A DNA stretch of 60,258 bases from Deltaproteobacteria bacterium. Its GTDB lineage: Bacteria > Desulfobacterota > Desulfuromonadia > Desulfuromonadales > JAAYDE01. The notes under the pieces were generated by a model. That model made no database searches, was not told the DNA's origin, and saw nothing but the letters and a program-made list of their open reading frames with translations. Positions 34,211-59,654 of this stretch are shown here, in pieces. The DNA lies in assembly GCA_016926265.1 (NCBI GenBank), contig JAFGOW010000025.1, positions 1-60,258 of the forward strand. Direction: 5' to 3'. The translations under genes and the position numbers were made by a program. Every line of letters begins with the position of its first letter. Within the stretch, counting starts at the first letter, position 1.

Positions 34211-34816
34211 TCAAAGGCGGGCTCCATCCTCCCGGCAGTTCGTAGAATCCAGCTCGCCGCCGCGCAGCGATGCGGCCAATTGCCTGAGGCGTTCGGCCAG
34301 TTCGAAACCGTCCACTTCCTGATGGCCCCACTCGGCCAGCGTCGATTGCAGGATGGCGGCAGCCTGTTCCCGTCCCCGCCGCTCCCGCCCCAGGGCCGTA
34401 AGGCAGCCGTTGAGCCCGGCCTCCAGGGAGCGCAGCCGATCCCGGCCCCGGAAGGTGACCCGCTCCCGGGGCAGCTCCCCTTGGGCCGCGGCGTTGAGAA
34501 CCCGGTCGAGCTTCAGCAGCGGCCCGGCCAGGGAATGGGTGAAGCGGATCGACCAGGCCAGGATCGCCAGGACCAGGACCAGGACCGTCAGGGAAAAGGT
34601 CCAGAGGGCCGACTGGTTGTGGTCGCAGATCAGGCGCTCGTCGAGGATGACGAGGTAGAACCAGGAGGAAACCCCGGCCACGGCCAGGGCCGTCAACAGC
34701 TGGACAGCGATCATGGCGCCGGCGTGGCGCAGCTGGAAACCGCGGTCGAGCACCAGGTTCCGCCATTGGCGCCGGGTGTTGGTCGGCGGCGCTGCCGCCG
34801 GAAGGGTCCGTTCCAT
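34211..34816 (-). CDS. Two-TM protein with HAMP-like domain
   Basis: LDRGFQLR, two TM helices, THSLAGPL..GEL..FRGRD. Confidence 0.75.
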   Translation of the reverse strand: MERTLPAAAPPTNTRRQWRNLVLDRGFQLRHAGAMIAVQLLTALAVAGVSSWFYLVILDERLICDHNQSALWTFSLTVLVLVLAILAWSIRFTHSLAGPLLKLDRVLNAAAQGELPRERVTFRGRDRLRSLEAGLNGCLTALGRERRGREQAAAILQSTLAEWGHQEVDGFELAERLRQLAASLRGGELDSTNCREDGARL

Positions 34817-34861
34817 TCATTTTTCTCCTTTCACGAAAAAACGCCCCGGAAACGGGGGGCG

Positions 34862-35242
34862 TCACGGCCCGGTATGGGTCATGTCGTCGGAAGTTCCGGC
34901 GACACCGTCGGGGCCGAGGCTGAACAGCCGGTAGCGCTTCCGGTCCGGCGACGCCTCATAGACCAGTTCGTGCCCCCAATGGTCGGTGGTCAACGATTTG
35001 AGCTGGTTCTCCTTGAAGCGCCGCGCCATCCAGGCGGCGAAATCCCCGGTCCTGGGGTAGCGGCCATGCCGCATCATCTCGTAGTCGAGCATGATGCTGA
35101 TGCTCCTCAGGTCCCCGGCGGTGGCCACCTTCTGCCCCAGCGCCACGGTGTCGTCGAAAAAGCGCGCGATGTTTTCCGAGTTGCCGGCGATCACCCCGAG
35201 GGAGATGGCCGCCACCAGGAATCTCCTGACGATCTCGACCAT
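34862..35242 (-). CDS. GspG-like pseudopilin head domain protein lacking a canonical prepilin motif
   Basis: GRYP, DHWGHELVY, YRLFSLGPDGVAGTSDD. Confidence 0.8.
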   Translation of the reverse strand: MVEIVRRFLVAAISLGVIAGNSENIARFFDDTVALGQKVATAGDLRSISIMLDYEMMRHGRYPRTGDFAAWMARRFKENQLKSLTTDHWGHELVYEASPDRKRYRLFSLGPDGVAGTSDDMTHTGP

Positions 35243-35248
35243 CGGGCC

Positions 35249-35758
35249 TCAACCTTCCGCTTCCCGGCGCTTTTTCCGCAGCCGCAGCGCCGCCAGGCCG
35301 CCGATCCCCAGCATCGCGCCGCCGCCGCACAGGGGCACCCAAAGCTTCTGGAAGAGGCCGGCCTTGGGGACAAAGGTGTAGACCTCCTGCCGCTTCTCGT
35401 CCGGGTCCGCCCGGTAATACCAGATGCCGTCATGGCCCCGCATAAAGGCCATGGAATCGGCGAAGGTCTTGTTGCCGTTGGTGTCGAGGACCTCGAAGGC
35501 GACCGTGGCCCGCGCCCCTTCCCGGACCAGGCCCTTGAAGTCCTTGACGTAGAAGCGGTTGGCGGTCGGCTCCGCGAGGTCCCGGTATTTGTGGCGGTGG
35601 ACGTAGCTCTCGATGAAATAGGCCAGGTCGTCCACGGTGATCTCTTCCTTGGCGAGCGCCACCTTCTCCCTTCCCTTGGTGCTGTGGGCCGAGCCCGGCG
35701 CCGCCAGAAAGCAGGAGAGCAGCAGGGCAACCGCGGCGATTCCCAGCAGACGTTTCAT
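35249..35758 (-). CDS. Exported protein with C-terminal TM anchor and basic tail
   Basis: Signal peptide ending GSA-H, C-terminal WVPLCGGGAMLGIGGLAALRLRKKRR. ATGA overlap with upstream gene. Confidence 0.75.
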   Translation of the reverse strand: MKRLLGIAAVALLLSCFLAAPGSAHSTKGREKVALAKEEITVDDLAYFIESYVHRHKYRDLAEPTANRFYVKDFKGLVREGARATVAFEVLDTNGNKTFADSMAFMRGHDGIWYYRADPDEKRQEVYTFVPKAGLFQKLWVPLCGGGAMLGIGGLAALRLRKKRREAEG

Positions 35759-36630
35759 GACGCCTTCTCCTTCCGCTCCGCGGCCAGGAACCGGTCGAGC
35801 CGCTCCCGGGCGATCTCCACCTCGAACTCCTTCTTCAGCCGTTCGTAGACCTTTCGCCATTCCTCCCGGTAGCGGTTGTAGCAGACATCGTTGCGGATGT
35901 ATTCCCGGCGCTCCTCAAAGCTGTACTGGACCGGAGCGGTTTTCCCCTCCAGGCGGAGCAGGCACCAGCCGCGGCGGCTCGGATGGGGTCCGGAGACGGT
36001 CCCCGGCTCCAGAGTCTCGATGACGCCGCGCAGCTCCTCCGGGTATCGCCGCAGCGGGAATCTCCCGGAGCGGGCGGAGCCGCCCGCCCCCTTCCCGGCC
36101 GCGGCCCGCTCCGCGATGGCCTGGTCGAAACTCTTCGTCCCCTTCTGGATCTCGGCCAGCAGGCTCTCGGCCTCGTTCCGCTCGGCGGCGGTGACCAGGG
36201 AGACCTCGTAGAGCGCCTCCTTTCGGTACTGGTCGCGGTGCTGCTCGTAATAGGCTCGCATCTCCTCTTCGGTGACGGCGTTGCGGTCGATCTTCGGAAC
36301 CATCTCCTCCCCCATTGTCTTGAGAAACAGATTCGCCATGAATTCATGGATTTCGGCCCGGATCCGGGGATCGAGATGGAGCTTTTTCCGCAGCCCCTCG
36401 GCAATGACCATCTCCATGTCCAGGGCATGCTCGAAGGCGTATTCCGGGGTCAGCATCTCCGGCTTGTTCCGGTAGCGCGGATTGACTTTGAGCTTGCCGT
36501 AGTGGGCCTGAACGTCCTCGACGGTCAGGCTCCCCCCCTCAAAGGTCGCCAGCACGTTTTCCCCCTTCTTCTCCCCGGCGCAGGCCGCCACCAGCAGCAC
36601 GCACCCCAAGACCAGCCAGACTCTTTTCAT
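35755..36630 (-). CDS. PrsA/SurA-like parvulin-type lipoprotein chaperone
   Basis: Lipobox VAAC, VLATFEGG, VTEEEMRAYYEQH, LEPGTVSGP..GWCLLRL. Confidence 0.8.
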   Translation of the reverse strand: MKRVWLVLGCVLLVAACAGEKKGENVLATFEGGSLTVEDVQAHYGKLKVNPRYRNKPEMLTPEYAFEHALDMEMVIAEGLRKKLHLDPRIRAEIHEFMANLFLKTMGEEMVPKIDRNAVTEEEMRAYYEQHRDQYRKEALYEVSLVTAAERNEAESLLAEIQKGTKSFDQAIAERAAAGKGAGGSARSGRFPLRRYPEELRGVIETLEPGTVSGPHPSRRGWCLLRLEGKTAPVQYSFEERREYIRNDVCYNRYREEWRKVYERLKKEFEVEIARERLDRFLAAERKEKAS

Positions 36631-36860: not shown

Positions 36861-38072
36861 TCAGGCGGAATAGAGCGCCAGCATCCCGGCCACCAGCCCC
36901 CAGGCCACGTAACCGACGATGCCGCCGAGCACCACGATCAGCACCGGCTCGATCATGGCGCTCATGCGGGCGATCTTGTCGGCCAGCACCTTCTCGTGCA
37001 GCTCCCCCACCGTGGTCATGGCCTGGTCCATGAGCCCGGAATGCTCGCCGATCTTGACCATCGCCCCCACCATCGGGGTGAAGAAGCGGTCGTCCCGGAA
37101 CGCGGCGGAGAGCGGCTCCCCGGCCAGCACCTTGTCGTTCATCCGGTCGATGTGCTTCTTCACCGCCAGGTTGGAGATGGTGGCGCCGGTCGCCCGCAGC
37201 GCCTCCACCAGCGTGATGCCGCTCTCCAGCAGGGCGGCGAAGGTCTTGGCGAACTGGACGATGACCCCGTAGCGGAACACCGAGCCGATCACCGGCAGAT
37301 AGATCTTGTAGCGGTCCACGACCAAGCGGCTCTCCGGGATCACCAGGACCAGCACCAGGGCCGCGACGCTGCCGAAGACGCCGGCCAGAATGGCCACGGC
37401 GTTGGTGGTCAGGAAAGCGGCCAGGTCGAGCAGCAGCTGGGTGTTGGCCGGCAGCTTGCGCCCCCCCAGCAGCACCGCGAACTTGGGGATGACGAAGGTG
37501 ACCAGGAAGACCACCACCACGATCGCCACCACCACGACCACCGAAGGGTAGATCATGCTGAGGATCATCTTGGCCCGGAGCGCGGCCCGCCCTTCCAGGT
37601 AATCGGAGATCCGCACCAGCACCGTGTCGAGGATCCCGCCCAGCTCCCCGGCCCGGATCATGTTGGTGATCGTCTCCGGAAAGACCTTGGGGTGTACCGC
37701 CATGGAATCGCTCAGCGGCATCCCCCCCTCGATGCGCTGCCGGATGTCCGCCAGCACCCATTTCAGCTTGCGGTTTTCGCACTGTTCGTGGAGGATCTCC
37801 ATCGCCTCGGAGATGGTGACGTTGGATTCGATCAGCGACGAAAACATCCGAAACAGCAGGATCAGGTCCCGGGTCCGGACCATCCCCAGCCGGGCCAGGA
37901 TGCCCCCCTTGGCGCCGGCGGCGGCGCGGCCGCTGTCGTCGTCGGCGATCTCGAGGATGACGAAGCCGCGGGCCCGCAGCCGCTCGGCCACGGTATCCTT
38001 GTCCGGCGCCGTAACGAACTCCCGGACCCGCAGCCCCTCGGCGTTCAGCGCCGTGCAGACGTAACCCGGCAT
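36861..38072 (-). CDS. PilC/GspF platform protein
   Basis: IEGGMPLSDSM..HPKVF, AGELGG, MIYP, LLESG, IGEHSG, IEPVLI. Confidence 0.93.
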   Translation of the reverse strand: MPGYVCTALNAEGLRVREFVTAPDKDTVAERLRARGFVILEIADDDSGRAAAGAKGGILARLGMVRTRDLILLFRMFSSLIESNVTISEAMEILHEQCENRKLKWVLADIRQRIEGGMPLSDSMAVHPKVFPETITNMIRAGELGGILDTVLVRISDYLEGRAALRAKMILSMIYPSVVVVVAIVVVVFLVTFVIPKFAVLLGGRKLPANTQLLLDLAAFLTTNAVAILAGVFGSVAALVLVLVIPESRLVVDRYKIYLPVIGSVFRYGVIVQFAKTFAALLESGITLVEALRATGATISNLAVKKHIDRMNDKVLAGEPLSAAFRDDRFFTPMVGAMVKIGEHSGLMDQAMTTVGELHEKVLADKIARMSAMIEPVLIVVLGGIVGYVAWGLVAGMLALYSA

Positions 38073-38082
38073 CTCCCCTCCG

Positions 38083-39729
38083 CTACACCATGGTCACCCG
38101 CAGGATCTCCTCCGCGGTGGTCAGCCCTTTTTTCACCTTGTCGATGCCGTCTTCCCGGAGCGTCCTGAACCCCTTGCGGCTCGCCGCGAAATGCTTGATC
38201 TCCTCAAAGCTGGCCTTGGCCATGACCAGTTTCTGGAGATCCTCGTCCATGGACAGCAGTTCGAAGATCCCCATCCGCCCCCGGTAGCCGTTGTGGCAGC
38301 GCTCGCACCCCCGGCCCCGCCTCACCGGGAAGGGCTCCCCTTCCAGCCCCAGCATCGCCCTCTCGGTGTCGCTGACCGGCTCCCATGCGCCGCAGTGGGG
38401 GCAGACCATGCGCACCAGGCGCTGGGCCAGGACGCCGCGCACCGACGCCGCCACCAGGAACGGCTCGGCGCCCATGTCGACCATGCGGTTGAAGGAGCTC
38501 GGGGCGTCGTTGGTGTGCAGGGTGGAGAGGACCAGGTGGCCGGTGATGGCGGCCCGCAGCGAGATGGAAAGGGTTTCCGGGTCGCGGATCTCCCCCACCA
38601 TGATGATGTCCGGGTCCTGGCGCAGGATCGCCCGCAGCGCCGCGGCAAAGGAGATCTTCTCGCCGCTGTCGACCTGGGTCTGGTTGACGCCGCGCACCGT
38701 CAGTTCCACCGGGTCCTCGATGGTGGTGATGTTGGTGGTGCCGCTGCGCAGCACCTGGAGCGCCCCGTACAGGGTCGTCGACTTGCCGGAGCCGGTGGGG
38801 CCGGTGACCAGCACGATGCCGTGCGGCGCCTTGAGGTGCTCCTGGAAGCGCGCCAGCATCGCCGCTTCCATCCCCAGCGACCCGAGCTCGATGACGGCGT
38901 CGTGGGGCGGGAGCAGCCGCAGCACCGCCTTTTCGCCGTGGACCGTGGGCAGGATGCTGACCCGGACGTTGACCCCATCCATCTCGACGTCGAGGGCCTG
39001 GGGGAGGAAGTAGAAGGCACCGTCCTGGGGCTTGCGCCGCTCCGCGATGTCGAGCCCGGCGATGACCTTGATGCGGCTCACCAGGCTGGAGGAGACGTCG
39101 TAGGGGAAGGTCTCGGTGCGGCGCAGCACCCCGTCCTCCCGGAACCGGATCACCAGCTCGTCCCGCTCCGGCTCGACGTGGATGTCCGAGGCGTTGCGGT
39201 TGACGGCGCGGACCATGATCTTTTCAAAGAGCTCGATGACAAAGGCCGAATCCTCGATGTCGATCCGTTTGCGCAGATCGATGGTGGTGTCGTAGGCCTG
39301 GCTGAAGAAGAGGTTCTGCATCTTCTTCAGCTTCCCCGGCGTCGTCAGCGCCAGCCGCACCTGTTTCTTGGCGATCCGGGAGATGGTCTGCAGCACCGAT
39401 TTGGGCAGCGGCCCGGAACAGGCCAGGATCAGCTCGCCGCCGTCCCCGACCCGCACCGGCAGCACGTTGGCCTTGAGCGCCATCTTCTTGGGGAGGAGGT
39501 TGACGATCCCCCGCTCGATGGAATCGACCTCGCTCTTGAACAGCGGGATCTCCAGAAAGCCGGAGAGATGGCCGACCATCTCCTCCTCGCTCAGCAGCCC
39601 CTCGCGCACCGCGATGGTTCCCAGCTTCTCCCGCACCAGGCGCTGGGTCACCAGCAGCCGGCTCAAGGCCTCGCGGCTGATGGCGTTGTGCCGCACCAGG
39701 TATTCTCCGAACCGCTCCATCGGCTGCAT
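38083..39729 (-). CDS. PilB/GspE assembly ATPase
   Basis: ASDIHVEP, DIAERRKPQDG, GPTGSGKSTT, LRQDPDIIMVGEIRD, CPHC..CERC Zn site. Confidence 0.95.
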   Translation of the reverse strand: MQPMERFGEYLVRHNAISREALSRLLVTQRLVREKLGTIAVREGLLSEEEMVGHLSGFLEIPLFKSEVDSIERGIVNLLPKKMALKANVLPVRVGDGGELILACSGPLPKSVLQTISRIAKKQVRLALTTPGKLKKMQNLFFSQAYDTTIDLRKRIDIEDSAFVIELFEKIMVRAVNRNASDIHVEPERDELVIRFREDGVLRRTETFPYDVSSSLVSRIKVIAGLDIAERRKPQDGAFYFLPQALDVEMDGVNVRVSILPTVHGEKAVLRLLPPHDAVIELGSLGMEAAMLARFQEHLKAPHGIVLVTGPTGSGKSTTLYGALQVLRSGTTNITTIEDPVELTVRGVNQTQVDSGEKISFAAALRAILRQDPDIIMVGEIRDPETLSISLRAAITGHLVLSTLHTNDAPSSFNRMVDMGAEPFLVAASVRGVLAQRLVRMVCPHCGAWEPVSDTERAMLGLEGEPFPVRRGRGCERCHNGYRGRMGIFELLSMDEDLQKLVMAKASFEEIKHFAASRKGFRTLREDGIDKVKKGLTTAEEILRVTMV

Positions 39730-39736: not shown

Positions 39737-40876
39737 TCAGCCCCTCAGCCCCACGGCTTCGGCGCAGCAGGCGGCGCGCCGCGCCGTCAGCCGCTGGCGC
39801 AGCAGCTGGCCGTTGCGGGCCGCGCCGATGCCGGTTTCGAGGCCGACCTTCCCCTCCTCGATGAGGCGCGTCAGGCTCTGCTCCATGGTCTGCATCCCGA
39901 GCTGCGAGCCGGTTTCGATGGCCGAATAGATCATGTCGTCCTTCCCCTGGCGGATCAGGTTGGCGATGCCGGGGGTGGAAAACATCACCTCCACCGCCGG
40001 CACCCTGCCGCTGCCCGAGGCGTTGGGGAGCAGCCGCTGCGAAACCACCGCCATCAGGGTCGTGGCGAGCTGCTGGCGGACCTGGGTCTGCTCCCCGGCC
40101 GGGAAGGCGCCCACCAGCCGGTTGACCGTGGAAACGCAATCCCGGGAGTGGAGGGTGGAAAAGACCAGGTGCCCGGTTTCCGCCGCCATGATCGCGGTGC
40201 GCATCGTCTCCAGGTCGCGCATCTCCCCCACCAGGATGACGTCGGGGTCGGCGCGCAGGGCGTCGCGCAGGGCGTCGCCGAAGGAGGGGACGTCGGTGTG
40301 CAGCTCCCGCTGGTTGATGAGGCAGCAGGTGTTGGCGTGGACGTATTCGATGGGGTCCTCGATGGTGATGATGTGGCGCCGGAAGCGGGTGTTGATGTCG
40401 TCGATCACCGTGGCCAGGGTGGTCGACTTCCCGGAACCGGTCACCCCGGTGACCAGCACCAGCCCGTCCCGCAGCTGCGACAGGCGCGCAACGCTCTCCG
40501 GCAGGCCGAGCCCGGCAAAGGTCGGAATCCCCTTGGCCAGCAGCCGCAGGGCGACGCTCAGGGCGCCGCGCTGATGGTAGGCGGCGACGCGGAAACGCCC
40601 GACCTCCGGGAGGCTGATCGCGAAATCGACCGACTTGTTGCGGCCCAGTACCTCCCGGTGGCGCGCCGTGAGGATCGCCTCCAGCAGGCCGGCGACCTCG
40701 GCCGGGGCGTAGGGGTCGCAGTTCATCGGAGTCAGCTCCCCCCGCACCCTGAACACCGGCGGCATCCCGGCGCCGAGATGGAGGTCGGAGGCGTTCCGGG
40801 CCACGGTTTCGCGCAGCAGCGCCGCCATCTCCAGCGGCTTGGGCCGCCGCATCTCAATGTTTGGGAAAACGCTCAT
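39737..40876 (-). CDS. pilT: PilT-family retraction ATPase
   Basis: ASDLHL, GVTGSGKST, TIEDPIE, LRADPDVILVGEMRD, AAETGH, GIANLIRQ (AIRNLIRE-like). Confidence 0.9.
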   Translation of the reverse strand: MSVFPNIEMRRPKPLEMAALLRETVARNASDLHLGAGMPPVFRVRGELTPMNCDPYAPAEVAGLLEAILTARHREVLGRNKSVDFAISLPEVGRFRVAAYHQRGALSVALRLLAKGIPTFAGLGLPESVARLSQLRDGLVLVTGVTGSGKSTTLATVIDDINTRFRRHIITIEDPIEYVHANTCCLINQRELHTDVPSFGDALRDALRADPDVILVGEMRDLETMRTAIMAAETGHLVFSTLHSRDCVSTVNRLVGAFPAGEQTQVRQQLATTLMAVVSQRLLPNASGSGRVPAVEVMFSTPGIANLIRQGKDDMIYSAIETGSQLGMQTMEQSLTRLIEEGKVGLETGIGAARNGQLLRQRLTARRAACCAEAVGLRG

Positions 40877-42740
40877 CGCTCTCTTCCTCTTCCCGTTTTT
40901 CAAGGATGTTTTCCCGCCCCTCGGTGATCTGCTCGTGGGAGCTCTTGCGCTCCAGGAATTCGCTGGAGACCTTGCCGGCCAGGGCCGGATGCATGATCAC
41001 GTGGGGGGTCAGGATGATCACGGTCTCGGTCTTGTTCCTGACCTTGTCCACCTCCCGGAAGAAGAAGCCTAGGCCGGGGATTTCGCCGAGCACCGGCACC
41101 TTGACGGTGCTGTCGTCGATGGTTTCGCGGATGATGCCGCCGATGGCGATGGACTGGCCGGAGCGCACCGAGAGGATCGACTTGATCTCGCTCTTGCTGG
41201 TGCCGTCGATGGGGTATTCGAGGACCTCGCCGGTGACGTCGTTGACCACCTGGACCGTGCTGTAGGCCAGAAGGGCGCTGGAGATCTCGGCCTTGAAATC
41301 GAGGGTGACGGTGCCGTCGGCGTTGATGAAGGTGGCCATTTCGACGTCGGTGCCGAGCTCCTCCTCCTCGATCTCCTGGGTGAAGCTGGTCAGGGTCTCC
41401 CCGGTGTCGCCGATGGAGACGGTTTCCGAGGTCACCTCGCCGCGCAGCGGCGTGTCCTCGCCGACGAAGAATTCGACCTTGCTGTTGTTGGCCGCCATCA
41501 AAAACGGGGTCGAAACCACCTCCAGCCTCCCCTCCTTGTCGTAGAGGGCCATCCGGACCTGGATCTTGTCGTCGGAAAAGAGGTAGTTCAGGCTCGTGGC
41601 CCCGGCGGCCTGAGTCCCCAGTACGCCGAGGGTGTTGAAGGAATCGGCCCAGTCGAATTCGAAGAAGCTCTCGAAGCCGTCGTTGAGGTTGAGCTGGAGG
41701 ATGCGGACCTCGAGCAGCACCTGGTTGGTCGGGGTGTCGAGGGCCTCGACGATCTGCCCCATCTCGTTGAGCAGCCCCTCGTCCAGGGACCGGGCCACGA
41801 TGCAGTTGTTGCGCTTGAAGACCGTCAGCACCGCCAGCAGCGGCTTGCCGGTCGCGCTCTGGCCGCCCTTGGCGGCGGTGGGGGTGGCGGCGCCGGGGCT
41901 GGAAAAGAGGCTTTCGAACTGTCCGGCCGCCGCGGCGCCTTCGGTTCCGGCCGGCGCCGGCGCAACCCCGGGTCCGCCGCCAGCAGCCGACGCGACGCCG
42001 CTCTTGCGGATCCGGGTGTCGTGGAGTTCCGGGGCCGCGTAATCGCCGCTGCCCACCGAGGCCTCGGCCTCGGGATCGATATGGCCGTAGACCTTCTCAT
42101 CCTCGATGGCCGCCAGATAGACCTGCTGCCCCATGGAGGCCTGGATCACCTTGGCCATGTCCGCGGCGTTGGTGTAGCGGATGAAGAAGGCCCGGGTCTG
42201 CTGGCGCTGGCGGACCAGGATGTCCTGGAGGTATTCCTCCCGGGTCATGAGGGTGACGATCCCCTCCCCCTCCCGGTACCAGAGGTCGTTGAGGCGGCAG
42301 ATCGCCTCGATGGCGCTCCGCAGGGTGAGGTCGCGGAGGTTGATGTCGATCTTCAGGTCGGCCACGGTCCGGGTCGCCACCACGTTGTAGCCGTAGGCCT
42401 CGGTCAGAAGCTCGGCCAGGGAGCGCACCGACACCTCCCGCAGCACCAGCGACCCGATCCGGCGCCCCAGCCCGGCGAAGGGGACCGCGGCCTGGCGCTC
42501 CAGCTCGAGCCGCGCCTCCTCGACGCTCCCCACGGCGGTGCCGGAGATGATCTTCACCACCGGCTTCTCCGGCTGCGGCAGCGCCACCTCCGCCTCGGCG
42601 GGCCGGGGGAGGGTGCCGCTCCGGGTTTCAAAGGTCTTGCGATAGAGGGGGCGGGCCGGCGGATCGATGTGGGCGCATCCCGCCCCCAGCAGCAGCATCC
42701 CGAACAGGGTCCCGGTTCCAATCAGGCGGCGGGCGCTCAT
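40854..42740 (-). CDS. Lipoprotein secretin (PilQ/GspD family)
   Basis: Lipobox LGAGC, LDTPTNQVLLEV, KVPVLGEIPGLGFFFR..ETVIILTPHVI. Confidence 0.92.
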   Translation of the reverse strand: MSARRLIGTGTLFGMLLLGAGCAHIDPPARPLYRKTFETRSGTLPRPAEAEVALPQPEKPVVKIISGTAVGSVEEARLELERQAAVPFAGLGRRIGSLVLREVSVRSLAELLTEAYGYNVVATRTVADLKIDINLRDLTLRSAIEAICRLNDLWYREGEGIVTLMTREEYLQDILVRQRQQTRAFFIRYTNAADMAKVIQASMGQQVYLAAIEDEKVYGHIDPEAEASVGSGDYAAPELHDTRIRKSGVASAAGGGPGVAPAPAGTEGAAAAGQFESLFSSPGAATPTAAKGGQSATGKPLLAVLTVFKRNNCIVARSLDEGLLNEMGQIVEALDTPTNQVLLEVRILQLNLNDGFESFFEFDWADSFNTLGVLGTQAAGATSLNYLFSDDKIQVRMALYDKEGRLEVVSTPFLMAANNSKVEFFVGEDTPLRGEVTSETVSIGDTGETLTSFTQEIEEEELGTDVEMATFINADGTVTLDFKAEISSALLAYSTVQVVNDVTGEVLEYPIDGTSKSEIKSILSVRSGQSIAIGGIIRETIDDSTVKVPVLGEIPGLGFFFREVDKVRNKTETVIILTPHVIMHPALAGKVSSEFLERKSSHEQITEGRENILEKREEEESDERFPKH

Positions 42741-43084
42741 TGCAGCTCCACCTCGTGGGTCTTCCCCTCCCGGTCCCGGAACAGGACGGCGCGGCGCTGG
42801 ATCTCGACAATGGTGAAGAGATGGTCGGCGCTGCCGAGACGGACCGTGACCCGGTCCTTCACCCCATACCTTTTCTCGCCCCCCTTCTCCCCGCAGCAAA
42901 GCACCACCTTCCGGAAGCCCTCGGCGATGACGATCCCCTTGATCTCGCAGGTTTTGATCGCCTCTTCGTAATTGAGGGTTCCGGCCTGGTCAAAGGGGTT
43001 CCGCTCCTCGGCGGCTCCGGCCCCGGCCGGCAGCAGCAACAGCATCGCGGCCGCGATCGCGGCCCGCATCCGACTCTTCTCCAT
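42737..43084 (-). CDS. Small exported PilP/GspC-like protein
   Basis: Signal peptide, RNPF motif, beta-rich IKGIV..VGD-like region, directly upstream of the secretin. Confidence 0.65.
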   Translation of the reverse strand: MEKSRMRAAIAAAMLLLLPAGAGAAEERNPFDQAGTLNYEEAIKTCEIKGIVIAEGFRKVVLCCGEKGGEKRYGVKDRVTVRLGSADHLFTIVEIQRRAVLFRDREGKTHEVELQ

Positions 43085-49196: not shown

Positions 49197-49438
49197 TCTC
49201 CTCGTTGGGTTGTTGGTTTCGAGGAGCGTTCCATCCCCAGGATCCGGCTCCCTCCCATGTCATGACATCCTCATTCCAAAACACCCAGGGAACGGCGGGA
49301 AGCGGCGCCGATGGCCGCTCCCGCGCCGTCCGGATCCGGGCCGGGCGGGCAGGAGGCCCCCGCCCGCTGTCACCTTCGGCTCCTTGGCCGCGACAGGTGA
49401 TCCGCGAAGGTCGTCGGTTCACCTCCTTTCAAGGGTTC

Positions 49439-49753: not shown

Positions 49754-49755
49754 GC

Positions 49756-49770
49756 TGAAATTTATTCGCA
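49756..49770. promoter_or_regulatory. Candidate Fur box
   Basis: TGAAATTTATTCGCA, two mismatches to TGAnAATnATTnTCA, directly upstream of the small gene. Confidence 0.45.
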
Positions 49771-49863
49771 GCGCTTTTATAGATCAGTTCTCGCTGATCC
49801 GCTACTCCTGGCGGGTTTTTTTTTGCTCCTGGCGGGTCAAATTTGGGGGAATACGAAAAGACC

Positions 49864-51427: not shown

Positions 51428-51715
51428 TTCTTCCCCCCTTTGAGGTTGTAAGGCCGGGCCATCCGCCGCGGTATGCGCTCCTCCTTGGATAAAAAATTAT
51501 TTAAATTTCACCCCCCGGTTGGCGGACCCACACCACCCGTGCCGGGGGGATGTTAACAGCAGCGTCAACTCAGGTTGACAGGCCAAAGGCTGAAGACATT
51601 ATTGCCGAGCGCACGCAGGACGCAGGGGCCGCCGGGAAAAACAGAACCATTTTGCCGCTGATTTTCGCTGATGAACGCTGATTTAGAATCACAGACCCTC
51701 AGAACCTTTTTCTAA

Positions 51716-51859: not shown

Positions 51860-51982
51860 CCAAGGTTTGATCATGCCTTTTCAGCGATAATCAGCGGCCA
51901 ATAACGTCTTTTTCTTTCCGTTTTGACCCCATCCCCATGTTTTTACTTTGCCTTCTTTGCGGCTTTGCGTGAGATGTGCCTT

Positions 51983-52984
51983 TTACCGGTTTTTTGAAAC
52001 CACGCCGGAACCCGCCGGTTTGATGCCGCTCAGGGCCGCGGACCAGCGGGTCAGCGCCTCCGGATAGGCCAGGGGATCGGAGTCGGCGTAGAGCGGCAGC
52101 GGAAAGACCGCCGGCGCCGGGCCGTTTCCCTTGCCGGCCAGGCGCAGGGACACGGCCAGGGCGTCGCCGGTGGCGGCGATCAGATCGGGATGCGCCGCCA
52201 TCACCTTGTCCAGGTTGCGCAGCATGACATGCCCCTTGTCGACCTTTTCCCCGGCGGCGACGAGCTCGGCGCCGACGTTCATGGCGCCGCAGGGCTCCAG
52301 GATGAAGCGGTCGCTGTAGCCCTGGGGCGCCTCCAGGCGGATGAAGGCCTTGCCGGTCCCCTCCTGGAAGGAACCGGAGACCACCGCCACCCGCAGCCCC
52401 TTGGGAACCTTGGCCAGGCGCTGCCGCGCCAGGGCCAGGCGGTTTTCATAGTCGCGGATCAGCTCCTCCCCGGCCTGCTCCAGGCCGAAATCGGCCGCCA
52501 GCCGGCGCACCGCCGGGGCCGGTCCCTTGGAGAAATCGAGCACCACCGGGTCGAGGCCGGCGCCGCGCAGTATCTTCACCAGTTTCTTCTCTTCGATATC
52601 GGGCCGGTAGAGGCAGCCGGAAAAGCCGAGATAAACCCTCTCCGGGGACAATTCGACGATCCGTTTCACCACCTCCTTGCCGGCCGGGCCGGAAAGACGT
52701 CCCGGACAGCCGAGAAACTCGGAGGCCGCCTTCAGGTGCGCGGCATCGTCCCAGAGGTTTTTTCTCCCCACCCAGGCCCGAGGCGCCACCTTCAGCCTCA
52801 GGCAGGCGGCGACCGCCGGCTCGCCGATCACCACGATCGGCCGTTTCTGGAACGCCTCCCCCTTGCAGACCGCCCCGCCCTCCCCCGGCACCAGCAGCAG
52901 CGCCGCCGCAACCCAGAGGGACAAGCCCGCGGCCCAGGGACAGAGCCCGCCGCGCCGGATCGAAAACCGTTTCATCATCGTCAT
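51983..52984 (-). CDS. Periplasmic substrate-binding-like protein (Fe/B12 helical-backbone class)
   Basis: Signal peptide, IVELSPE, GEELIRDYENRL linker helix, GAMNV, AHPDLI. Exact start uncertain. Confidence 0.65.
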   Translation of the reverse strand: MTMMKRFSIRRGGLCPWAAGLSLWVAAALLLVPGEGGAVCKGEAFQKRPIVVIGEPAVAACLRLKVAPRAWVGRKNLWDDAAHLKAASEFLGCPGRLSGPAGKEVVKRIVELSPERVYLGFSGCLYRPDIEEKKLVKILRGAGLDPVVLDFSKGPAPAVRRLAADFGLEQAGEELIRDYENRLALARQRLAKVPKGLRVAVVSGSFQEGTGKAFIRLEAPQGYSDRFILEPCGAMNVGAELVAAGEKVDKGHVMLRNLDKVMAAHPDLIAATGDALAVSLRLAGKGNGPAPAVFPLPLYADSDPLAYPEALTRWSAALSGIKPAGSGVVSKNR

Positions 52985-53253
52985 CAACAAGGCCAAACCT
53001 CCTTCTTTCACGGCGCCGCCTGGCGCCGGGCCATGGGAACAAACCGGGGCGCCGGGGGCCTCCCGCGGCCCCGCGAACCCCGCCTCCGGTTTCCGGTTGG
53101 GTATCGTTAAAAGACGGAATTGAGGTGCAGCAAAATTTTCCGGACCTTCTGAAAAATTTTTGATTTTTGCGATTTTGTTGCCGATTTTATATGCCGGGTA
53201 AAAGGAAGGCGCTACCCCGAGCGGGTATTTTTACGCTCAAGGCGGGTCAGATG

Positions 53254-53372: not shown

Positions 53373-53720
53373 CTATCGCAGGAACAGGCCGGCGATCCGG
53401 GGCGCCAGATTCACGCCCAGAACGACAAACAACGCGATGATCAAGGTCTCGACGCCGGCCTGGAGGCTCATTTCCTTCATGACGTAGGCCGCGGCGAAGT
53501 CGGTCAGGACGCAGAAGGTCAGGGCCCCCCACAGCCCGGTTTTGGCGAAGACGAGGACAATGGCCACGACCAGCGGGATGGAGAGGACCGAGCCCAGCAG
53601 CGCGGTGGCGACGAGGGAAACCTGGGAATGCCTGGAAATGACGTGAACCATGCCCGCCATTCGCGGGCAGACGATAAACATCGCCATCGCGGCGCTTGCA
53701 ATTAGCAACTCCTTGGGCAT
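53373..53720 (-). CDS. Small multi-TM hypothetical membrane protein
   Basis: Hydrophobic 115 aa, CPRM motif, SD AAGGAG. Confidence 0.8.
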   Translation of the reverse strand: MPKELLIASAAMAMFIVCPRMAGMVHVISRHSQVSLVATALLGSVLSIPLVVAIVLVFAKTGLWGALTFCVLTDFAAAYVMKEMSLQAGVETLIIALFVVLGVNLAPRIAGLFLR

Positions 53721-53856: not shown

Positions 53857-54657
53857 CTACTTCATGTCCCGGGCCTGTACCCAGATCACCGCGTCCTGGG
53901 ACAGTTCCTTGTCCTTGAATTTCTTGTCCGGGCCGGCGCCGAGGGCGCAGAACCCCCACCAGCCGGCCCTGGGAATGCCGAAGGAGAACTCGCCCGCGGC
54001 GTTGGCCTTGATCCCCAGGGTCACGAAGGCATCCTGGGGCGCTTCCGCATGGGCTTTCCTGGCAAAGGCATTCTTCTTCATGTCGGGTTCGTGGTTCAGG
54101 TATTCGACCTCGATCTCGGCATAGGGAACCGGCTGGCCGTTGCTCTTGACGATCCCCCTGAAGACGTTTCCGGTCCAGAGGGCATAGGGCTTGTCCAGGG
54201 GCACGATCTCGGCGGGCAGGCCGATTTCCGCATCCCAGTCGGTCGGGAATCCGGCGGCGTTGACCACCATCTTGGTGATCTGCTGGATATAGATGTCCTC
54301 TTCCTGTTCATAATAGGGGCTGGGGACGAGGCAGAAGACATTGTCCCCCATGCCCCGCACCTTGTACGAGGCCTCGTAGGCCGCGCCGCTGTTGGTGAGG
54401 CTGGTCCAGGTGATGGGCTTCAGGCCTTTGAGCAGATCCTCCTTCTTCCCCTTGCGAACCGCGAAAAACTGCTCGGGCCGGCCCATGTCCATGGTGTGGC
54501 CGGCTTCGAAGGGGTGGGTGAAGACCAGCCTCAGAGGGATTTCGGCCCCCTTGACCAGGGCGCTTTCAGGGGTATAGATCATCTGGAAATGGGCCAAAGC
54601 CGGTACGGCAAAGGCCAGGGCCGTTACGGCCGCCGACAGAACCACCGCTTTTTTCAT
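53857..54657 (-). CDS. DUF4198 (NikM-like) periplasmic protein
   Basis: ALA-HFQMIY, FTHPF, AEIVPL.KPY, GWWGFCALG. Confidence 0.88.
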   Translation of the reverse strand: MKKAVVLSAAVTALAFAVPALAHFQMIYTPESALVKGAEIPLRLVFTHPFEAGHTMDMGRPEQFFAVRKGKKEDLLKGLKPITWTSLTNSGAAYEASYKVRGMGDNVFCLVPSPYYEQEEDIYIQQITKMVVNAAGFPTDWDAEIGLPAEIVPLDKPYALWTGNVFRGIVKSNGQPVPYAEIEVEYLNHEPDMKKNAFARKAHAEAPQDAFVTLGIKANAAGEFSFGIPRAGWWGFCALGAGPDKKFKDKELSQDAVIWVQARDMK

Positions 54658-54698: not shown

Positions 54699-55022
54699 TC
54701 ACTTGGCGATATCCTTGCCGTCGATTTCGATCCTATGGCCCTCGCCGGCGTCGAACACGACCCGGTAGGCCGCGGCAGGTTTTTTAAAAGTGAATTCGCT
54801 GTCCTGGTCCATCTTGCCGTTGATCAGTACGGCGCCGTTGCTCTCCACCCGCATCTGCACGCCGGAGGCCGAGGAACCGTCGGAAAAACCCCCTTCGCAG
54901 GTGACGGTGCCGTCCCCGTTGTCGTAGCAGGAGCACAACGGGGTGTGGGCCAGGGCCTGCCCGGCGATGAGAAGTCCGGCCAGGGCCAGCAGGATCGGGG
55001 TGAAAAAATTCCGTTTACACAT
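54699..55022 (-). CDS. Small exported protein with N-terminal His/Cys motif
   Basis: ALA-HTPLCSCYDNGDGTVTCEGGFSDG, FDAGEGH. Confidence 0.8.
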   Translation of the reverse strand: MCKRNFFTPILLALAGLLIAGQALAHTPLCSCYDNGDGTVTCEGGFSDGSSASGVQMRVESNGAVLINGKMDQDSEFTFKKPAAAYRVVFDAGEGHRIEIDGKDIAK

Positions 55023-57525
55023 GGTCAATTCCTCCATTCGTTGGGGTTGCTCCCTGCTGCTGGATTTTCGTATGAAAGGGGAAGAAGCCCATGAAGAGCG
55101 TGAACAGCAGGGCCAGGCCGTAAAAGGCGAACATCGCTTCCAGGCCGCTGAGGCCGAGGGCGCTTCCCAGGGAAAAAATCGCGGTGGCGACGACGATTCC
55201 GAGACACATGGGGTAGATGATGGAAAACAGCATCCATCCGTAAGAGCCGGCCTGCAGCTTGACGGCGATAGCCGTCGCCATGCAGGGCGGATAGAGCACC
55301 ATGAAAAGCATCAGGGCCAGGGCGTGCAGCGGGGTGAAGCCTTCCTCCCCCTGGGCCATGCGTTCCTCCAGGGCCTGCCCCTCTTCCTCCGGCTGATAGA
55401 GGGCCCCGAGGGTGGCGACGCTGCTCTCCTTGGCGGCCAGGGCGCTGAGCAGGGCGACATTGACCCGCCAGTTGAAACCGGCGTATCGGGTGACCGGCTC
55501 CAGCCACTTGCCCAAGGTGCCGAGAAAACTGGTATCGATCCGCTCCATGCGCATCTCCCGCAGCAGCCCCTTGCGCTCCTTGATCAGCTTTCTTAACTCC
55601 CGGTTGACCTTCAGGGCCTCCTTGTCGTCGCCCGGCTGGACGATGGCGAAATAGAGGGGATCGCGTTCCCGGAATTCGGCGTTCAGACGCTCCGCGGCGG
55701 CGCCGTCGCCGGCGGCCATTTTGGCGTCCTTGTACGCCTCCGAGAAGTTGATCAGGGGCATGAGATCATCCTTCGGCAGTTGGGTGGCGAAAGGGGTGTT
55801 TTTGATCTTTTTGAAGAAGGTCTCTACCGCCTTGTCCTTTTCGGCATGGTAGGAAGCCATCCGCTCCCGACTGATGCCGGGAAACTGAAGCAGGACGAAA
55901 ACGGCCACGGCTACGGCCACGACAATGGTGGAAATCTTGCGCATGAAGAGCCAGACCCGCTCCACGGCGCGGCCCAGAACCCCTCTCAGGGTCGGCAGAT
56001 GGTAAGGCGGCATTTCCATGACAAATGGGGCTGTTTCCTTGTCTTTGAGAACCGTCAGGGTGAGGATCTTGGAAACCGGCAGCACCAGGAGCAGGCTGAT
56101 GGTCGAGATGAAGAACATGGCCCAGGCCTTGTGGGCGGCGAAATAGATGTTGATCAGGAGGACATACAGGGGAACCTTGGCCAGGCAGTTGAGCAGGGGG
56201 ATGATGAGGATGGTGGCCAGCCGTGAACGCTCGTCCGGGATCCCCTTGCACGACATGACGCCCGGCACGGCGCAGCCGCCGACGTAGATGCCGCCCAGAA
56301 CCATGGGCAGGGTCGACTGGCCGTGGAGGCCGAAGCGGTTGAAAAGGCGGTCCATGATAAACGCCATGCGCGGCATGTAGCCGCTGTCCTCGAGGACGGC
56401 GATGAGCCCGAACAGGATGAAAAAGATGGGAATGTAGTTGAGCAGGGCGTTGACGCTGTCGACGATCCACAGGGCGAATTCGCGGAGCAAGGGGATCTCG
56501 ACAAATCCCGGGGACGGCGCGATACCCTCGACCAGGCTGCGCAGCTTGGCCAGCAGCGGCCAGGTGTAATTGGTAAGGTTGTAGCCCTGGACGATGGCCA
56601 GATAATAGAGAAGCCATATCACCCCGACCAGGATGGCCGGGCCGAGGAGGCGATGGCAGACCAGCCCGTCGATCCGGTCGGAAAAAGGCCTGGGGGATCC
56701 GGGCGGAAGAACCAGGCTGGTCTGGGCGATATCGTTCGCCGTCTGATAGCGGCGATGGGCGATGTGCGCCTCGGGGGATTCCTGGTGTGACGATTCGAAG
56801 TCGGCGCGGGATCTCTCGACAATTTGCAGAAAGGGTTCGGGTTCGGGGAGGTTTTCCCGAACCAGACTTTCCGCTTTGCTGTCGCCCTCCATGAGCTTGA
56901 TGGCAAGCCAGCGTATCGGATAGCGGTTGGCCAGGTAAGGAGCGACCGCAAGACACGAAATGATATCCCGCAAAAACGGCTCCATTTCCCCGTAATCGAT
57001 TCGGACGGGTTTCTGGGCCTCTGCGCCCGAAGAAACAGCTTCAATGGCATCGAGAAGATCCTTTTTGCCCTCTCCGTTTTTCATGATGGTCGGCACGACG
57101 GGGATGCCGAGGTTGCTGGACAGCCGGTTGATGTCGATGCGGATGCCGCGCTTTTGGACCACATCCATCATGTTGAGGTTCAGGATGACCGGAATCTCCA
57201 TTTCCAGCAGTTGAAATGTCAGGTAGAGACAGCGCTTCAAATTTGCGGCGTCCATGACATTGACCACCACGGACGGCTTCTCATGAAGGATGAAATCCCT
57301 GGAAACCCGCTCTTCCGGGGAATAGGACGTCAGGCTGTAGGTCCCGGGCAGATCCACCACATCGACCCAGCGGTCGTTGTGGTGGTATCTCCCGCTCATC
57401 TTGTCGACGGTGACGCCGGGGTAGTTGGCGACGTGCTGGCTGGCCCCGGTCAGGGCGTTGAAGACCGTGGACTTGCCGCAATTGGGCTGGCCGGCCAGAG
57501 CAACCAGAATCTTGTCCTGCTTCAT
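55015..57525 (-). CDS. feoB: Ferrous iron transporter B
   Basis: GQPNCGKS, NYPGVTV, DLPGTYS, LEDSGYMPR, FVMEMPPY, AAKE, LYPPC. Confidence 0.96.
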   Translation of the reverse strand: MKQDKILVALAGQPNCGKSTVFNALTGASQHVANYPGVTVDKMSGRYHHNDRWVDVVDLPGTYSLTSYSPEERVSRDFILHEKPSVVVNVMDAANLKRCLYLTFQLLEMEIPVILNLNMMDVVQKRGIRIDINRLSSNLGIPVVPTIMKNGEGKKDLLDAIEAVSSGAEAQKPVRIDYGEMEPFLRDIISCLAVAPYLANRYPIRWLAIKLMEGDSKAESLVRENLPEPEPFLQIVERSRADFESSHQESPEAHIAHRRYQTANDIAQTSLVLPPGSPRPFSDRIDGLVCHRLLGPAILVGVIWLLYYLAIVQGYNLTNYTWPLLAKLRSLVEGIAPSPGFVEIPLLREFALWIVDSVNALLNYIPIFFILFGLIAVLEDSGYMPRMAFIMDRLFNRFGLHGQSTLPMVLGGIYVGGCAVPGVMSCKGIPDERSRLATILIIPLLNCLAKVPLYVLLINIYFAAHKAWAMFFISTISLLLVLPVSKILTLTVLKDKETAPFVMEMPPYHLPTLRGVLGRAVERVWLFMRKISTIVVAVAVAVFVLLQFPGISRERMASYHAEKDKAVETFFKKIKNTPFATQLPKDDLMPLINFSEAYKDAKMAAGDGAAAERLNAEFRERDPLYFAIVQPGDDKEALKVNRELRKLIKERKGLLREMRMERIDTSFLGTLGKWLEPVTRYAGFNWRVNVALLSALAAKESSVATLGALYQPEEEGQALEERMAQGEEGFTPLHALALMLFMVLYPPCMATAIAVKLQAGSYGWMLFSIIYPMCLGIVVATAIFSLGSALGLSGLEAMFAFYGLALLFTLFMGFFPFHTKIQQQGATPTNGGIDHV

Positions 57526-57749
57526 GCCGACTCCACCTCTACGAAACGGGCTTCGTCGTGGCGCAGGCTGACGAAATAGCCGCCCAGTTCGACCTCCATG
57601 GGGTCCTCCAGCGGCGCGTTGCGCACCACTTTCAATTCAAGCCCCGGATAAATCCCCATGTCCATGAGCCGCTGGCCCAGTTTGTCCCGCACCGATAACC
57701 TCTTGATCCGCCCCCGACTCCCCGGTCTCATCTGATCCAACGTCATCAA
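57522..57749 (-). CDS. feoA: Ferrous iron transport protein A
   Basis: QRLMDMG, VRNAPLEDP, VSLR. Confidence 0.95.
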   Translation of the reverse strand: MMTLDQMRPGSRGRIKRLSVRDKLGQRLMDMGIYPGLELKVVRNAPLEDPMEVELGGYFVSLRHDEARFVEVESA

Positions 57750-57767
57750 GAATGGTTCCTCCCGATC

Positions 57768-57825
57768 AAAACAAAAGGCGCAACCCGTCAGCCCCCTCCC
57801 GCCGGAGAGGTCCGAGTTGCGCCTT
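57768..57825 (-). promoter_or_regulatory. Terminator-like hairpin in the feoA leader (candidate attenuator)
   Basis: AAGGCGCAACTCG..CGGGTTGCGCCTT-TTGTTTT directly before the SD. Confidence 0.6.
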
Positions 57826-58080
57826 CACTTTTTCCGCGCCTGGAATGCCGGAAACCGTAAGACGTTCCTGTTTATTTTAGTTTTTATTCTCTTTTAAAGT
57901 CGGGGCTAAAATAGCTCAAAAAAATTTTTTGTCAAAGGTTTTTTTGTCGGGAAAAAAATTTCGGGTCCACGGACCGGATCGGCGGCCCCCGCCGCCGGGG
58001 AAGGACTTTGGAGGGGCGGGGATGACGAAAGCCGGAGATTTCGTCCCAAAGCCGTCCGGTTTGACCGCCCCGATCCTTTT

Positions 58081-58761
58081 TTGCTAGGATGCCTTCAAAT
58101 CATCCCTGCCGGGGAACCGACGAGAAAGCCTTGCCCTTTGCCAACCAACCTTTCCAGATGGCGCCCGCCCCTGCTTTTGGGCCTCCTGCTGACGGCCGTT
58201 CTCTCCTGCCGGGGGGAAGTCTCGGCCCACCCCCATGTTTTCGTCAGCCAGCGGTTCGTCGTCATCTTCGATGACCAAGGCCTCGCCGGCGTTCAGGTCT
58301 GCTGGGCCTTTGACGACATGTTTTCCACCATGATCGCCGGGGACTACGATCTCAACCAAAACGGCCGCTTCGAAGGCGGCGAAATCGCCAAGATCGAAAA
58401 AGAGGCCTTTTCCAATCTCGCCGGGTTCGGCTATTTCCTCTTCATCCGGATCGACCGAACCCCGTTCCCAGTGAAATACGTCAAGGATTTCAACGCCATT
58501 CTCGATAAGGGGAAGATGAGTTACGAATTCTTCGTCCCCTGCCATGTCCAAGCCACCAGCCAGTTCAAGAAACTGTCCATCGCCGGCTACGACCCCTCCT
58601 ACTACACCGCCATGTTCTTTTCGGAGCAGGATCCGGTGGTGCTCCGTTCCGCCGAGGGTTTCGAGGTGCGCACCGCCCTCCGGGAAGACCCCGAAACCAG
58701 CATCTATTTCGACATGATCCACCCCCAGACGCTGTTTCTGGAATTCCGCAGGCAGCCATGA
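58081..58761 (+). CDS. DUF1007 family periplasmic protein
   Basis: SA-HPHVF, WAFDDMFS, YDPSYY. True start probably downstream of 58081. Confidence 0.88.
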   Translation: MLGCLQIIPAGEPTRKPCPLPTNLSRWRPPLLLGLLLTAVLSCRGEVSAHPHVFVSQRFVVIFDDQGLAGVQVCWAFDDMFSTMIAGDYDLNQNGRFEGGEIAKIEKEAFSNLAGFGYFLFIRIDRTPFPVKYVKDFNAILDKGKMSYEFFVPCHVQATSQFKKLSIAGYDPSYYTAMFFSEQDPVVLRSAEGFEVRTALREDPETSIYFDMIHPQTLFLEFRRQP

Positions 58762-59654
58762 AGCGGATCTGGCTCCTGCTGATAGTGGCCGGAATCCTCG
58801 CCACTGCCGCGCCGGCTTTTCCGCGGCCCCCCTTCAGCGCCCAACCGCAGATCGCCCGCCAGGCTCCGGAACCCTCCTTCTATCAGTCCTTTCTGGTCAC
58901 CATCAGCCAGTGCCAGCAGCACTTGAAACAGCGGATGGCGGATCTGATCCGGAAGACCCGCCGGGACGGCGATCCCGGCCCCCTCCTCACCCTTCTGGCC
59001 CTGGCCTTCCTTTACGGCGCCATCCACGCCGCCGGCCCCGGGCACGGCAAGGCGGTCGCCACCTCCTACGTTCTTTCGCACCGCGCCTCGCTCCGGGGAG
59101 GGGTGCTGTTCGGCATCGGCGTCGCCATGCTGCACGGCGGATCGGGGATCCTCAGCGTTATCGGCCTGCGCTACCTGCTGCAACAGAGCGTCAGCCGCAC
59201 CCTGGTCTCGGTCACTCAGGTCACGGAGCTGGTCAGCTTCGCTCTGATCGCCCTGCTGGGATTGGGTATCCTGGTGAAAAACGGCTGTGAGCTCTTTTTT
59301 CGCCGTGCCCCGGAGCACCCGGAAGCGGCTCCGGCGCCACCCCGCCGCCAACCGCTGCTGTGGGCCACGGCGGTGGGGATCATCCCGTGCCCGGCGGTGG
59401 TGATGACGATGCTGTTCTGCCTCTCCATGGGGGCGCTGGTCCTCGGCCTGCTGCTGACCCTCTGCATCTCCCTCGGCATGGCCCTCACCATTTCCCTGGT
59501 CGTCTGCGCGGTCGTGGCCGGGAAAAGCGGCTTTTTGCAGCGGATACCCCCCAAGATCGCCGCGGCCCTCGAAACCGGGGTCGGCATGGCCTCGGGAGCC
59601 GCCATCGCGATCTTCGGCGTTGTGCTGCTGCTGGCGGCCGTCCATCGAACCTAA
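58758..59654 (+). CDS. RcnA/NiCoT-like nickel/cobalt transporter
   Basis: YGAIHAAGPGHGK, GIIPCP, ISLGMALT. Confidence 0.88.
   Translation: MKRIWLLLIVAGILATAAPAFPRPPFSAQPQIARQAPEPSFYQSFLVTISQCQQHLKQRMADLIRKTRRDGDPGPLLTLLALAFLYGAIHAAGPGHGKAVATSYVLSHRASLRGGVLFGIGVAMLHGGSGILSVIGLRYLLQQSVSRTLVSVTQVTELVSFALIALLGLGILVKNGCELFFRRAPEHPEAAPAPPRRQPLLWATAVGIIPCPAVVMTMLFCLSMGALVLGLLLTLCISLGMALTISLVVCAVVAGKSGFLQRIPPKIAAALETGVGMASGAAIAIFGVVLLLAAVHRT

Follow-up and report, generated by a model that had tools for sequence, protein, structure and literature searches.

A type IV pilus gene set with giant acidic pilins and recurrent linkage to metal-uptake genes

The locus and its features

The window analysed here comprises the 60,258 nucleotides of contig JAFGOW010000025.1 (assembly GCA_016926265.1) from a Deltaproteobacteria bacterium. 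Positions 34211 to 59654 hold a minus-strand run in which the iron-uptake genes feoA and feoB are followed by exported proteins, three large prepilins and the machinery of a type IV filament. Judged by its genes, this pilus system is a complete type IV pilus gene set with giant acidic pilins that forms a clade of its own. Its parts list and its separate clade were established together with a recurrent linkage to metal genes and two cis elements common to both. The system probably belongs to a metal regulon in most of its carriers, a conclusion that is more secure than its job. Fetched loci, genomes and contigs are labelled L, G and C, respectively, G000 being the genome of the window; published work is cited from parts of the sources named. 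The features, from the divergent genes to the end of the run, are:

58758..59654, +, NicO-family membrane protein (PF03824, E 1e-16)
58081..58761, +, DUF1007 exported protein, predicted mature start HPHV (PF06226, E 1.5e-35)
57908..57935, -, feoA promoter, sigma70-like (TTGACA-16-TATTTT; consensus match alone)
57767..57871, -, leader RNA, candidate attenuator (stem, internal loop and hairpin overlapping an intrinsic terminator)
57522..57746, -, feoA (PF04023)
55015..57525, -, feoB (TIGR00437, above cut-off)
54699..55037, -, NikL-like exported protein, predicted mature start HTPLC (NF058648, 55.6 bits, E 6e-15, below the cut-off of 100)
53857..54657, -, DUF4198 exported protein, predicted mature start HFQM (PF10670)
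53373..53720, -, 115-aa membrane protein (homologue within the pilus operon of L015)
53210..53252, -, 21-bp-period direct repeat, copy 1, candidate activator site
53117..53138, strand., weak DtxR-type site (score 11.9, genome rank 46)
51983..52984, -, substrate-binding protein, PF01497-like, without adjacent permease (Foldseek fold match)
51444..51490, -, pilin-leader hairpin, copy 1
50273..51427, -, large prepilin B (one of the 384/392/672-aa prepilin set with GFxLxE motifs)
49800..49842, -, 21-bp-period direct repeat, copy 2
49742..49763, strand., degenerate DtxR-type site (rank 48; relatives have exact boxes at the same place)
49439..49726, -, small conserved basic cytoplasmic protein (frame opens at 49753; start at 49726 inferred)
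49213..49259, -, pilin-leader hairpin, copy 2
48018..49196, -, large prepilin A, likely the major subunit
45673..47691, -, 672-aa prepilin, likely a minor or tip subunit
44127..45632, -, PilM-PilN fusion (profile matches to 2ych, E 1e-6, and 3jc8 PilN, E 2e-5)
43594..44130, -, PilO (PF04350)
42737..43084, -, PilP-like open reading frame (ORF), named from its conserved position; no family match
40854..42740, -, secretin with lipobox-like LGAGC (PF00263; below GspD, PilQ and MshL cut-offs)
39737..40876, -, PilT retraction ATPase (TIGR01420, 446 bits, cut-off 319; IANLIRQ motif)
38083..39729, -, assembly ATPase (PilB/GspE) with MshEN domain and c-di-GMP motif (NF053729, 40.4 bits, cut-off 38)
36861..38072, -, PilC platform (PF00482)
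35755..36630, -, parvulin-type peptidyl-prolyl isomerase (PPIase) lipoprotein (PF13145)
35249..35758, -, membrane-anchored exported protein, 169 aa, conserved His at the predicted mature start
34862..35242, -, GspG-like protein without class III cleavage motif (PF08334)
34211..34816, -, protein with two transmembrane segments and a HAMP-like stretch (weak HAMP-region matches, E 5e-4)

Every gene that the first-pass annotation had named from feoA to the HAMP protein is present in the order it gave. The divergent DUF1007/RcnA-like pair it described consists of the DUF1007 and NicO-family genes, which we take to be a ZevAB-like pair. The small ORF at 49439-49726, which it overlooked, has tblastn matches in 31 of the 42 loci introduced below. 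The reported lack of a prepilin peptidase in the window extends to the whole genome (84.65% complete), and the reported lack of a TonB-dependent receptor is confined to the window, with six receptor matches on other contigs. Internal terminators were claimed as well: a hairpin followed by U lies downstream of both the 115-aa gene and pilin B, and another strong hairpin is found after pilin A, but the total of 23 hardly differs from the 21.4 in shuffled sequences. Repeat-like intergenic insertions at 49864-50158, 51651-51901 and 43100-43590 interrupt the run, and similar sequence is present on other contigs.

The filament machine and its relatives

An assembly ATPase, an inner-membrane platform and a class III pilin, the parts of the generic definition of the type IV filament superfamily (Denise 2019; PMC6668835), are all encoded here. 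The assembly ATPase, secretin and platform scored below the cut-offs of both type II secretion system (T2SS) and type IVa pilus (T4aP) models. For the ATPase, the scores with GspE (504, cut-off 630) and PilB (TIGR02538; 500, cut-off 676) were nearly equal, and the best-scoring models were GspD for the secretin and GspF for the platform. The prepilins matched pilin and pseudopilin models at the N-terminus alone, in all cases below cut-off, and the GspG-K set of T2SS was not recovered. On sequence grounds, the system is placed in the superfamily; it would work most like T4aP while falling short of the canonical PilB and T2SS models. T4aP is paraphyletic in the superfamily study (PMC6668835), and a broad model might still accept this system.

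With T4aP it shares class III prepilins, PilB-like and PilT ATPases, PilC, PilM/N/O and, in this locus, a secretin. Unlike T4aP, the genes form one compact locus in which PilM and PilN are fused, the pilins of 360 and 660 aa have heads without a known-fold match, the ATPase is below the TIGR02538 cut-off and in another clade, and the lipoprotein-type secretin is far below the PilQ cut-off. Extra His-initiated, GspG-like and HAMP-like genes and metal-regulon elements add to the differences. Of the T4aP alignment complex, PilM, PilN (fused) and PilO were found, and PilP was assigned by position alone.

A scan of GTDB genomes yielded 42 loci with the pilus operon, mostly in Desulfobacterota. Further carriers are Ammonifex thiophilus and metagenome-assembled genomes labelled Bacillota, Brocadiaceae, Phycisphaerae and Gammaproteobacteria. 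Wherever contigs reach, the order is kept: small ORF, pilin A, 672-aa pilin, PilMN, PilO, PilP-like protein, secretin, PilT, PilB, PilC, PPIase, anchored protein, GspG-like and HAMP-like proteins. The copies in Ammonifex and Bacillota have no secretin gene in the run, which suggests that the filament does not need a secretin for its activity there. In the Bacillota loci L039 and L040 the PilP-like gene is also missing from the run, and an O-antigen-ligase-like gene (weak PF04932) follows the pilin. The Desulfobulbus copy L110 has a prepilin peptidase inside the operon, and ORFs of similar size occupy the same place in L113 and L118. L027, a 2-kb contig that carries a close homologue of pilin A under an archaeon label, is likely mis-binned. 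Carriers are rare, with 4 found among 400 genomes sampled from the phylum when five candidates were scored per genome. No close ATPase was found on plasmids, all 619 records being below 60% identity. Our literature search found papers on other systems and none on this one; most subscription journals and supplements lay outside its scope.

In a tree of 78 ATPases (FastTree, midpoint root), the 26 cluster members formed one clade with a support of 0.995. They were separate from the paralogs that score above PilB or GspE cut-offs, and from the canonical PilB sequences of L048, L080, L085 and C186. In the PilT tree of 36 sequences, cluster members stood apart from six other PilT/PilU proteins. The separate clade whose existence the first-pass annotation proposed to examine by such trees was recovered for the assembly ATPase, and PilT was likewise set apart.

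The model scores raise the question whether the machine could be a T2SS-like exporter that releases metal-binding proteins under starvation by means of a short pseudopilus. The single operon, the equal standing of GspE and PilB among the ATPase scores, the GspD- and GspF-like scores, the GspG-like ORF and the periplasmic chaperone resemble T2SS, including the Geobacter Pul/OxpG type. However, every contig long enough to show it has PilT in the operon, a PilM-N fusion and PilO stand in place of GspL/M, and the GspG-like ORF has no cleavage motif. The giant pilins, the secretin-less copies and the position of the ATPase outside the GspE clade, on a tree without a named Pul protein, also differ from T2SS. 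We consider such an exporter improbable.

Metal genes and common control elements

Conservation of feoB beside pilin A homologues had been suggested as a check on the linkage, and it was found in part of the carriers. The distance between feoB and a giant-pilin gene is no more than 30 kb in 12 of 39 genomes, where at most 1.3 would be expected by chance. The distances were read by hand, many of the remaining contigs are too short to tell, and the counts leave out L027 for its short contig and L034 and L036 as second loci of genomes already counted. When all ATPase paralogs of ten genomes were compared, 6 of 10 cluster ATPases (one at 29.9 kb) were within 30 kb of feoB, versus 2 of 54 others. 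The Fisher p-value of 7e-5 for this difference is overstated, as are the p-values in general, because related genomes are not independent.

The neighbouring FeoB proteins are 30-76% identical to that of the window and are encoded upstream or downstream in either orientation. This diversity indicates that the linkage is not one inherited block. Other recurrent neighbours are dtxR, DUF2325, DUF2023, flavodoxin, HMA2-type P-ATPases, AraC, ZnuA, NikL with DUF4198, DUF1007 with NicO, TonB receptors and an LbtU-like porin. In Bacteroidetes, flavodoxin and DUF2023 rank among the genes that respond most strongly to iron starvation, with an induction of 37- to 600-fold (PMC10434189).

The pilus and the feo genes also have control sequences in common. 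The Fur-like box that the first-pass annotation had placed in the cluster was not found: positions 34000-60258 contain no site within 3 mismatches of the deltaproteobacterial consensus (PMC545781) and none within 4 mismatches of the Escherichia coli Fur consensus. Fur was rejected as the regulator for want of a box at the locus; two Fur-family genes are present elsewhere in the genome. A de novo dyad scan of 32 upstream regions instead ranked TTAG-N6-CTAA first, in 12 regions versus 0.47 expected. When upstream regions were scored with a matrix derived from 16 other sites, 10 of 31 reached at least 16, versus 2.6% of shuffles. The 14 bases of the motif open the DtxR consensus (PMC7762939), and the motif is also found ahead of feoA and dtxR genes.

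The three top-scoring sites in the genome of the window lie ahead of its two dtxR genes and of an operon on contig C183 whose genes precede the pilus in other genomes. The strongest box heads that operon (G000 C183:950-3621), which encodes a 97-aa protein, a DUF2325-like, a STAS-like and an AraC protein, and a His-rich 76-aa protein. In Ammonifex the sole genome-wide match of the box is the pilus promoter. Raw genome counts of the box were uninformative, since a reversed control pattern was commoner in 4 of 5 genomes. The site at 49742 has flanks that are kept in the nearest relative. In L002, L004, L010, L029, L030 and L031, which have no box at the pilin, the pilus comes last in a series of regulon genes, AraC among them, that share one orientation. 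At G000 C171:3406 an exact box occurs with no recognised metal gene beside it. A DtxR-family regulator would bind the box and repress the pilus, with Fe2+ as the likely metal on our best guess. The regulator has the Cys of an ACxMEH motif, as DtxR does. Like DtxR/IdeR regulons (PMC7762939), the set has a box within the DtxR consensus, ahead of feoAB and the regulator gene; it differs in having a short regulator nearer to MntR models in Gram-negative anaerobes, a pilus as target and an added leader attenuator.

This attenuator is the leader RNA of feoA (57767-57871), which matches 20 elements in fetched loci. In the alignment of the 20 copies, 96% of the cells are paired and 27 show changes on both sides, and neither value was reached by any of 500 shuffles. 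The lower stem is invariant and thus uninformative for covariation. Invariant CUU.CG and AGUGAAGGC flank the covarying hairpin, which overlaps the terminator. Folding of the full leader gave the terminator, and a shorter leader gave an alternative stem that captures the left arm of the terminator; from these models, the RNA would switch between terminator and antiterminator. It is directly ahead of the small ORF or pilin A in L001, L017, L018 and L026. All 10 copies found in G000, G002 and G005, five of them outside the training set, are in dtxR or feo islands, and no copy was found in G003 and G007 (150 candidates scored per genome). The leader RNA also occurs, without a giant-pilin match, in three of 120 further genomes, where its nameable neighbours are dtxR, DUF2325 or DUF4198. 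The element matched no Rfam 15 family, and feoA/feoB are absent from the main text of one RNA-discovery paper (supplements outside scope). In its own right, the element is a candidate metal-responsive RNA switch. In at least 13 places (for instance L013:2746-3039 and G000 C183:989-1276), the leader RNA comes directly after the gene of a 97-aa protein that matches no known family and is a candidate antiterminator.

Two further elements mark the pilin genes. The pilin-leader hairpin, with a G-rich 7-nt loop, occurs twice in the window; its 28 copies are 79% paired, and in five whole genomes it was seen solely ahead of giant-pilin genes. The 21-bp-period repeat has exactly two mismatch-free copies in the genome and is also present at both matching places in L002, with an AraC gene just upstream.

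The linkage had been described as one of proximity only; it goes beyond proximity because the DtxR-type box and the leader attenuator are common to pilus and feo genes across genomes. The position beside iron-uptake genes and the same control sequences suggest that the pilus is likely switched on by metal shortage. An ordinary pilus might instead hitch-hike with metal genes in a mobile island and gain nothing from the link. The patchy range, seen in the 4 carriers among 400 genomes, and loci without any metal link, such as that of G003, would fit such hitch-hiking. Yet FeoB subfamilies, sides and orientations differ, and a box or attenuator lies directly on the pilus promoter even where no feoB is nearby (L005, L020, L021, L040), so that we regard hitch-hiking as quite improbable.

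Pilins, exported proteins and possible function

The mature prepilins A and B have 359 aa (pI 4.1) and 366 aa (pI 4.6), and the third has 662 aa (pI 4.4) with two DADGDG motifs. Pilins A and B are 47% identical, with variable loops in acidic heads that contain 15% Asp+Glu. A-type pilins are characterised by HCP and CPxGH motifs, and the conservation of C69, H136 and C271 is 86-95% across 57 sequences. At E 0.001, pilin A has 369 relatives. Its model is confident (pLDDT 83.6), but the whole model had no Foldseek match at E 0.001, and a wide search matched the N-terminal helix alone. The head thus seems to have no known fold, judged from a search with the whole model rather than the head by itself. 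An Atlas search returned only the pilin A family's own cluster, and unnamed clusters for the small ORF.

These heads bear on a pilus for DNA uptake or extracellular electron transfer. Competence pili use PilT-type retraction (PMC6668835), and the carriers are metal and sulfate reducers. CxxCH is present in none of the three pilins, however, and their aromatic content is 8-10%. The strongly acidic heads would repel DNA, and no comEA/comEC was seen among the annotated neighbours in a search that was not exhaustive. Either function is very unlikely.

The substrate-binding protein has a fold of the heme/B12/siderophore class (Foldseek E 5e-11 to BhuT, also BtuF and FhuD) and is encoded directly ahead of pilin B in 6 loci. 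It carries no N_methyl motif; an ordinary signal peptide was found here and in 11 homologues. The idea that it is always paired with pilin B was dropped, as a homologue lies off the pilus cluster in the dtxR-feoB island of G002 (L146). The proposed archaeal bindosome (bioRxiv 2026.04.22.720090) is likewise a type IV filament machine put forward for nutrient capture with substrate-binding proteins. Unlike the bindosome, where the class III signal is on the binding proteins, the present system has an ATPase that belongs with bacterial PilB/PilT (BasE score 34 of 1000), and its target seems to be metal.

The mature chain of the anchored operon protein is predicted to begin with His in 17 of 18 copies. 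Among distant relatives such a predicted His start was found in 46 of 57 by a strict pattern, and in a 30-row alignment in more than 90%. The NikL-like, DUF4198 and DUF1007 proteins are likewise His-initiated after predicted cleavage. The N-terminal His of a mature chain can bind metal. No Pfam or PDB relative of the anchored protein was found.

From this genomic comparison, we tentatively favour the reading that the pilus may serve to acquire metal, in that it would attach to metal-bearing particles and draw them in to the cell surface. Metal shortage, most likely of Fe2+, would lift DtxR-family repression and turn on the pilus operon; PilB would then assemble the filament under c-di-GMP input, and PilT would retract it. 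We guess that the acidic heads, with their HCP and CPxGH motifs, could bind metal sulfide or oxide particles or metal complexes, and that retraction could bring this cargo to porins or TonB receptors, His-initiated periplasmic proteins and FeoB for uptake. The secretin would be the exit pore and not necessarily the cargo route. Of the dedicated retractile metal filament first proposed, the presence of PilT, the separate clade and the recurrent linkage to metal-uptake genes held up, and the capture itself stays conditional. It is possible, though doubtful, that the system is more specifically a metal-mining pilus, whose acidic pilins catch metal-sulfide or iron particles in sulfidic sediment for PilT to reel in. 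It would be governed by a three-layer switch of DtxR-type operator, metal-responsive leader RNA (riboswitch or protein-bound antiterminator) and pilin-leader hairpin.

Several observations weigh against metal acquisition. On contigs above 100 kb in eight genomes, the nearest feoB is more than 30 kb away or missing, and on one further contig the distance is 40 kb. At the cluster of G003, a complete chromosome, neither feoB nor dtxR is present, nor is a strong box or a leader element. In our reading, the metal link is weak or missing in 7 of 31 upstream regions (L007, L015, L022, L024, L025, L028, L039). In the window itself the DtxR-type sites are weak (49742 and 53117 rank 48 and 46 in the genome). 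The short regulator scores higher with MntR than with DtxR models, below all cut-offs, and a review states, in the part cited, that DtxR-family members without SH3 are not Fe2+-responsive (PMC7762939). The neighbours ZnuA, NikL/DUF4198 and NicO leave the choice of metal wide. Riboswitches for c-di-GMP precede pilins at 10 distinct sites in relatives (6 + 4; c-di-GMP-I and c-di-GMP-I-GGC, in L009, L019, L028, L038, L126 and L131-L136), although none was found in the window; with the MshEN domain of PilB they point to a control of surface lifestyle. Synechocystis PilA1 (PMC4144903) and Legionella PilA2 (PMC13170364) are type IV pilins that aid growth on scarce or insoluble iron, but they are ordinary major pilins of general-purpose pili, whereas a separate machine is apparently placed in a metal regulon here. 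In the part of the Legionella study drawn on, moreover, the effect is independent of PilT and PilD, and the pilin's iron role does not depend on the pilus.

The c-di-GMP riboswitches and the MshEN motif would suit a pilus for adhesion, aggregation or twitching that is induced by metal starvation and captures no metal itself. So would the O-antigen-ligase-like gene beside the pilin in the two Bacillota loci, the secretin-less copies and the variable head loops. Such a pilus would leave two things unexplained, the His-initiated operon protein and the heme/siderophore-class binding protein ahead of pilin B. The genome, with three further PilB/GspE-type loci, already has a canonical PilB-PilT-PilC locus in C186. 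We rate this alternative as rather unlikely, though not negligible.

Should metal acquisition be correct, a pilus in a metal regulon would be a novel way of reaching insoluble metal and a novel function of bacterial type IV filaments. Fe, Zn, Ni and Co are precipitated by sulfide, yet the iron demand of sulfate reducers is high, and these bacteria were reported, in the text cited, to be without siderophore ABC transporters (PMC545781). Cultured carriers, among them Desulfobulbus rhabdoformis, Desulfofustis glycolicus, Desulfotignum balticum and Ammonifex thiophilus, make the hypothesis testable.

Two features lie outside the cluster. At 22210-22405 (-), a cobalamin riboswitch precedes an anaerobic ribonucleotide reductase gene (19708-22221), close to B12-dependent methyltransferase genes. 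At 29920-31903 (-), a low-GC pair of AAA_21 ATPase and RloB-like genes resembles a defence or toxin-antitoxin module.

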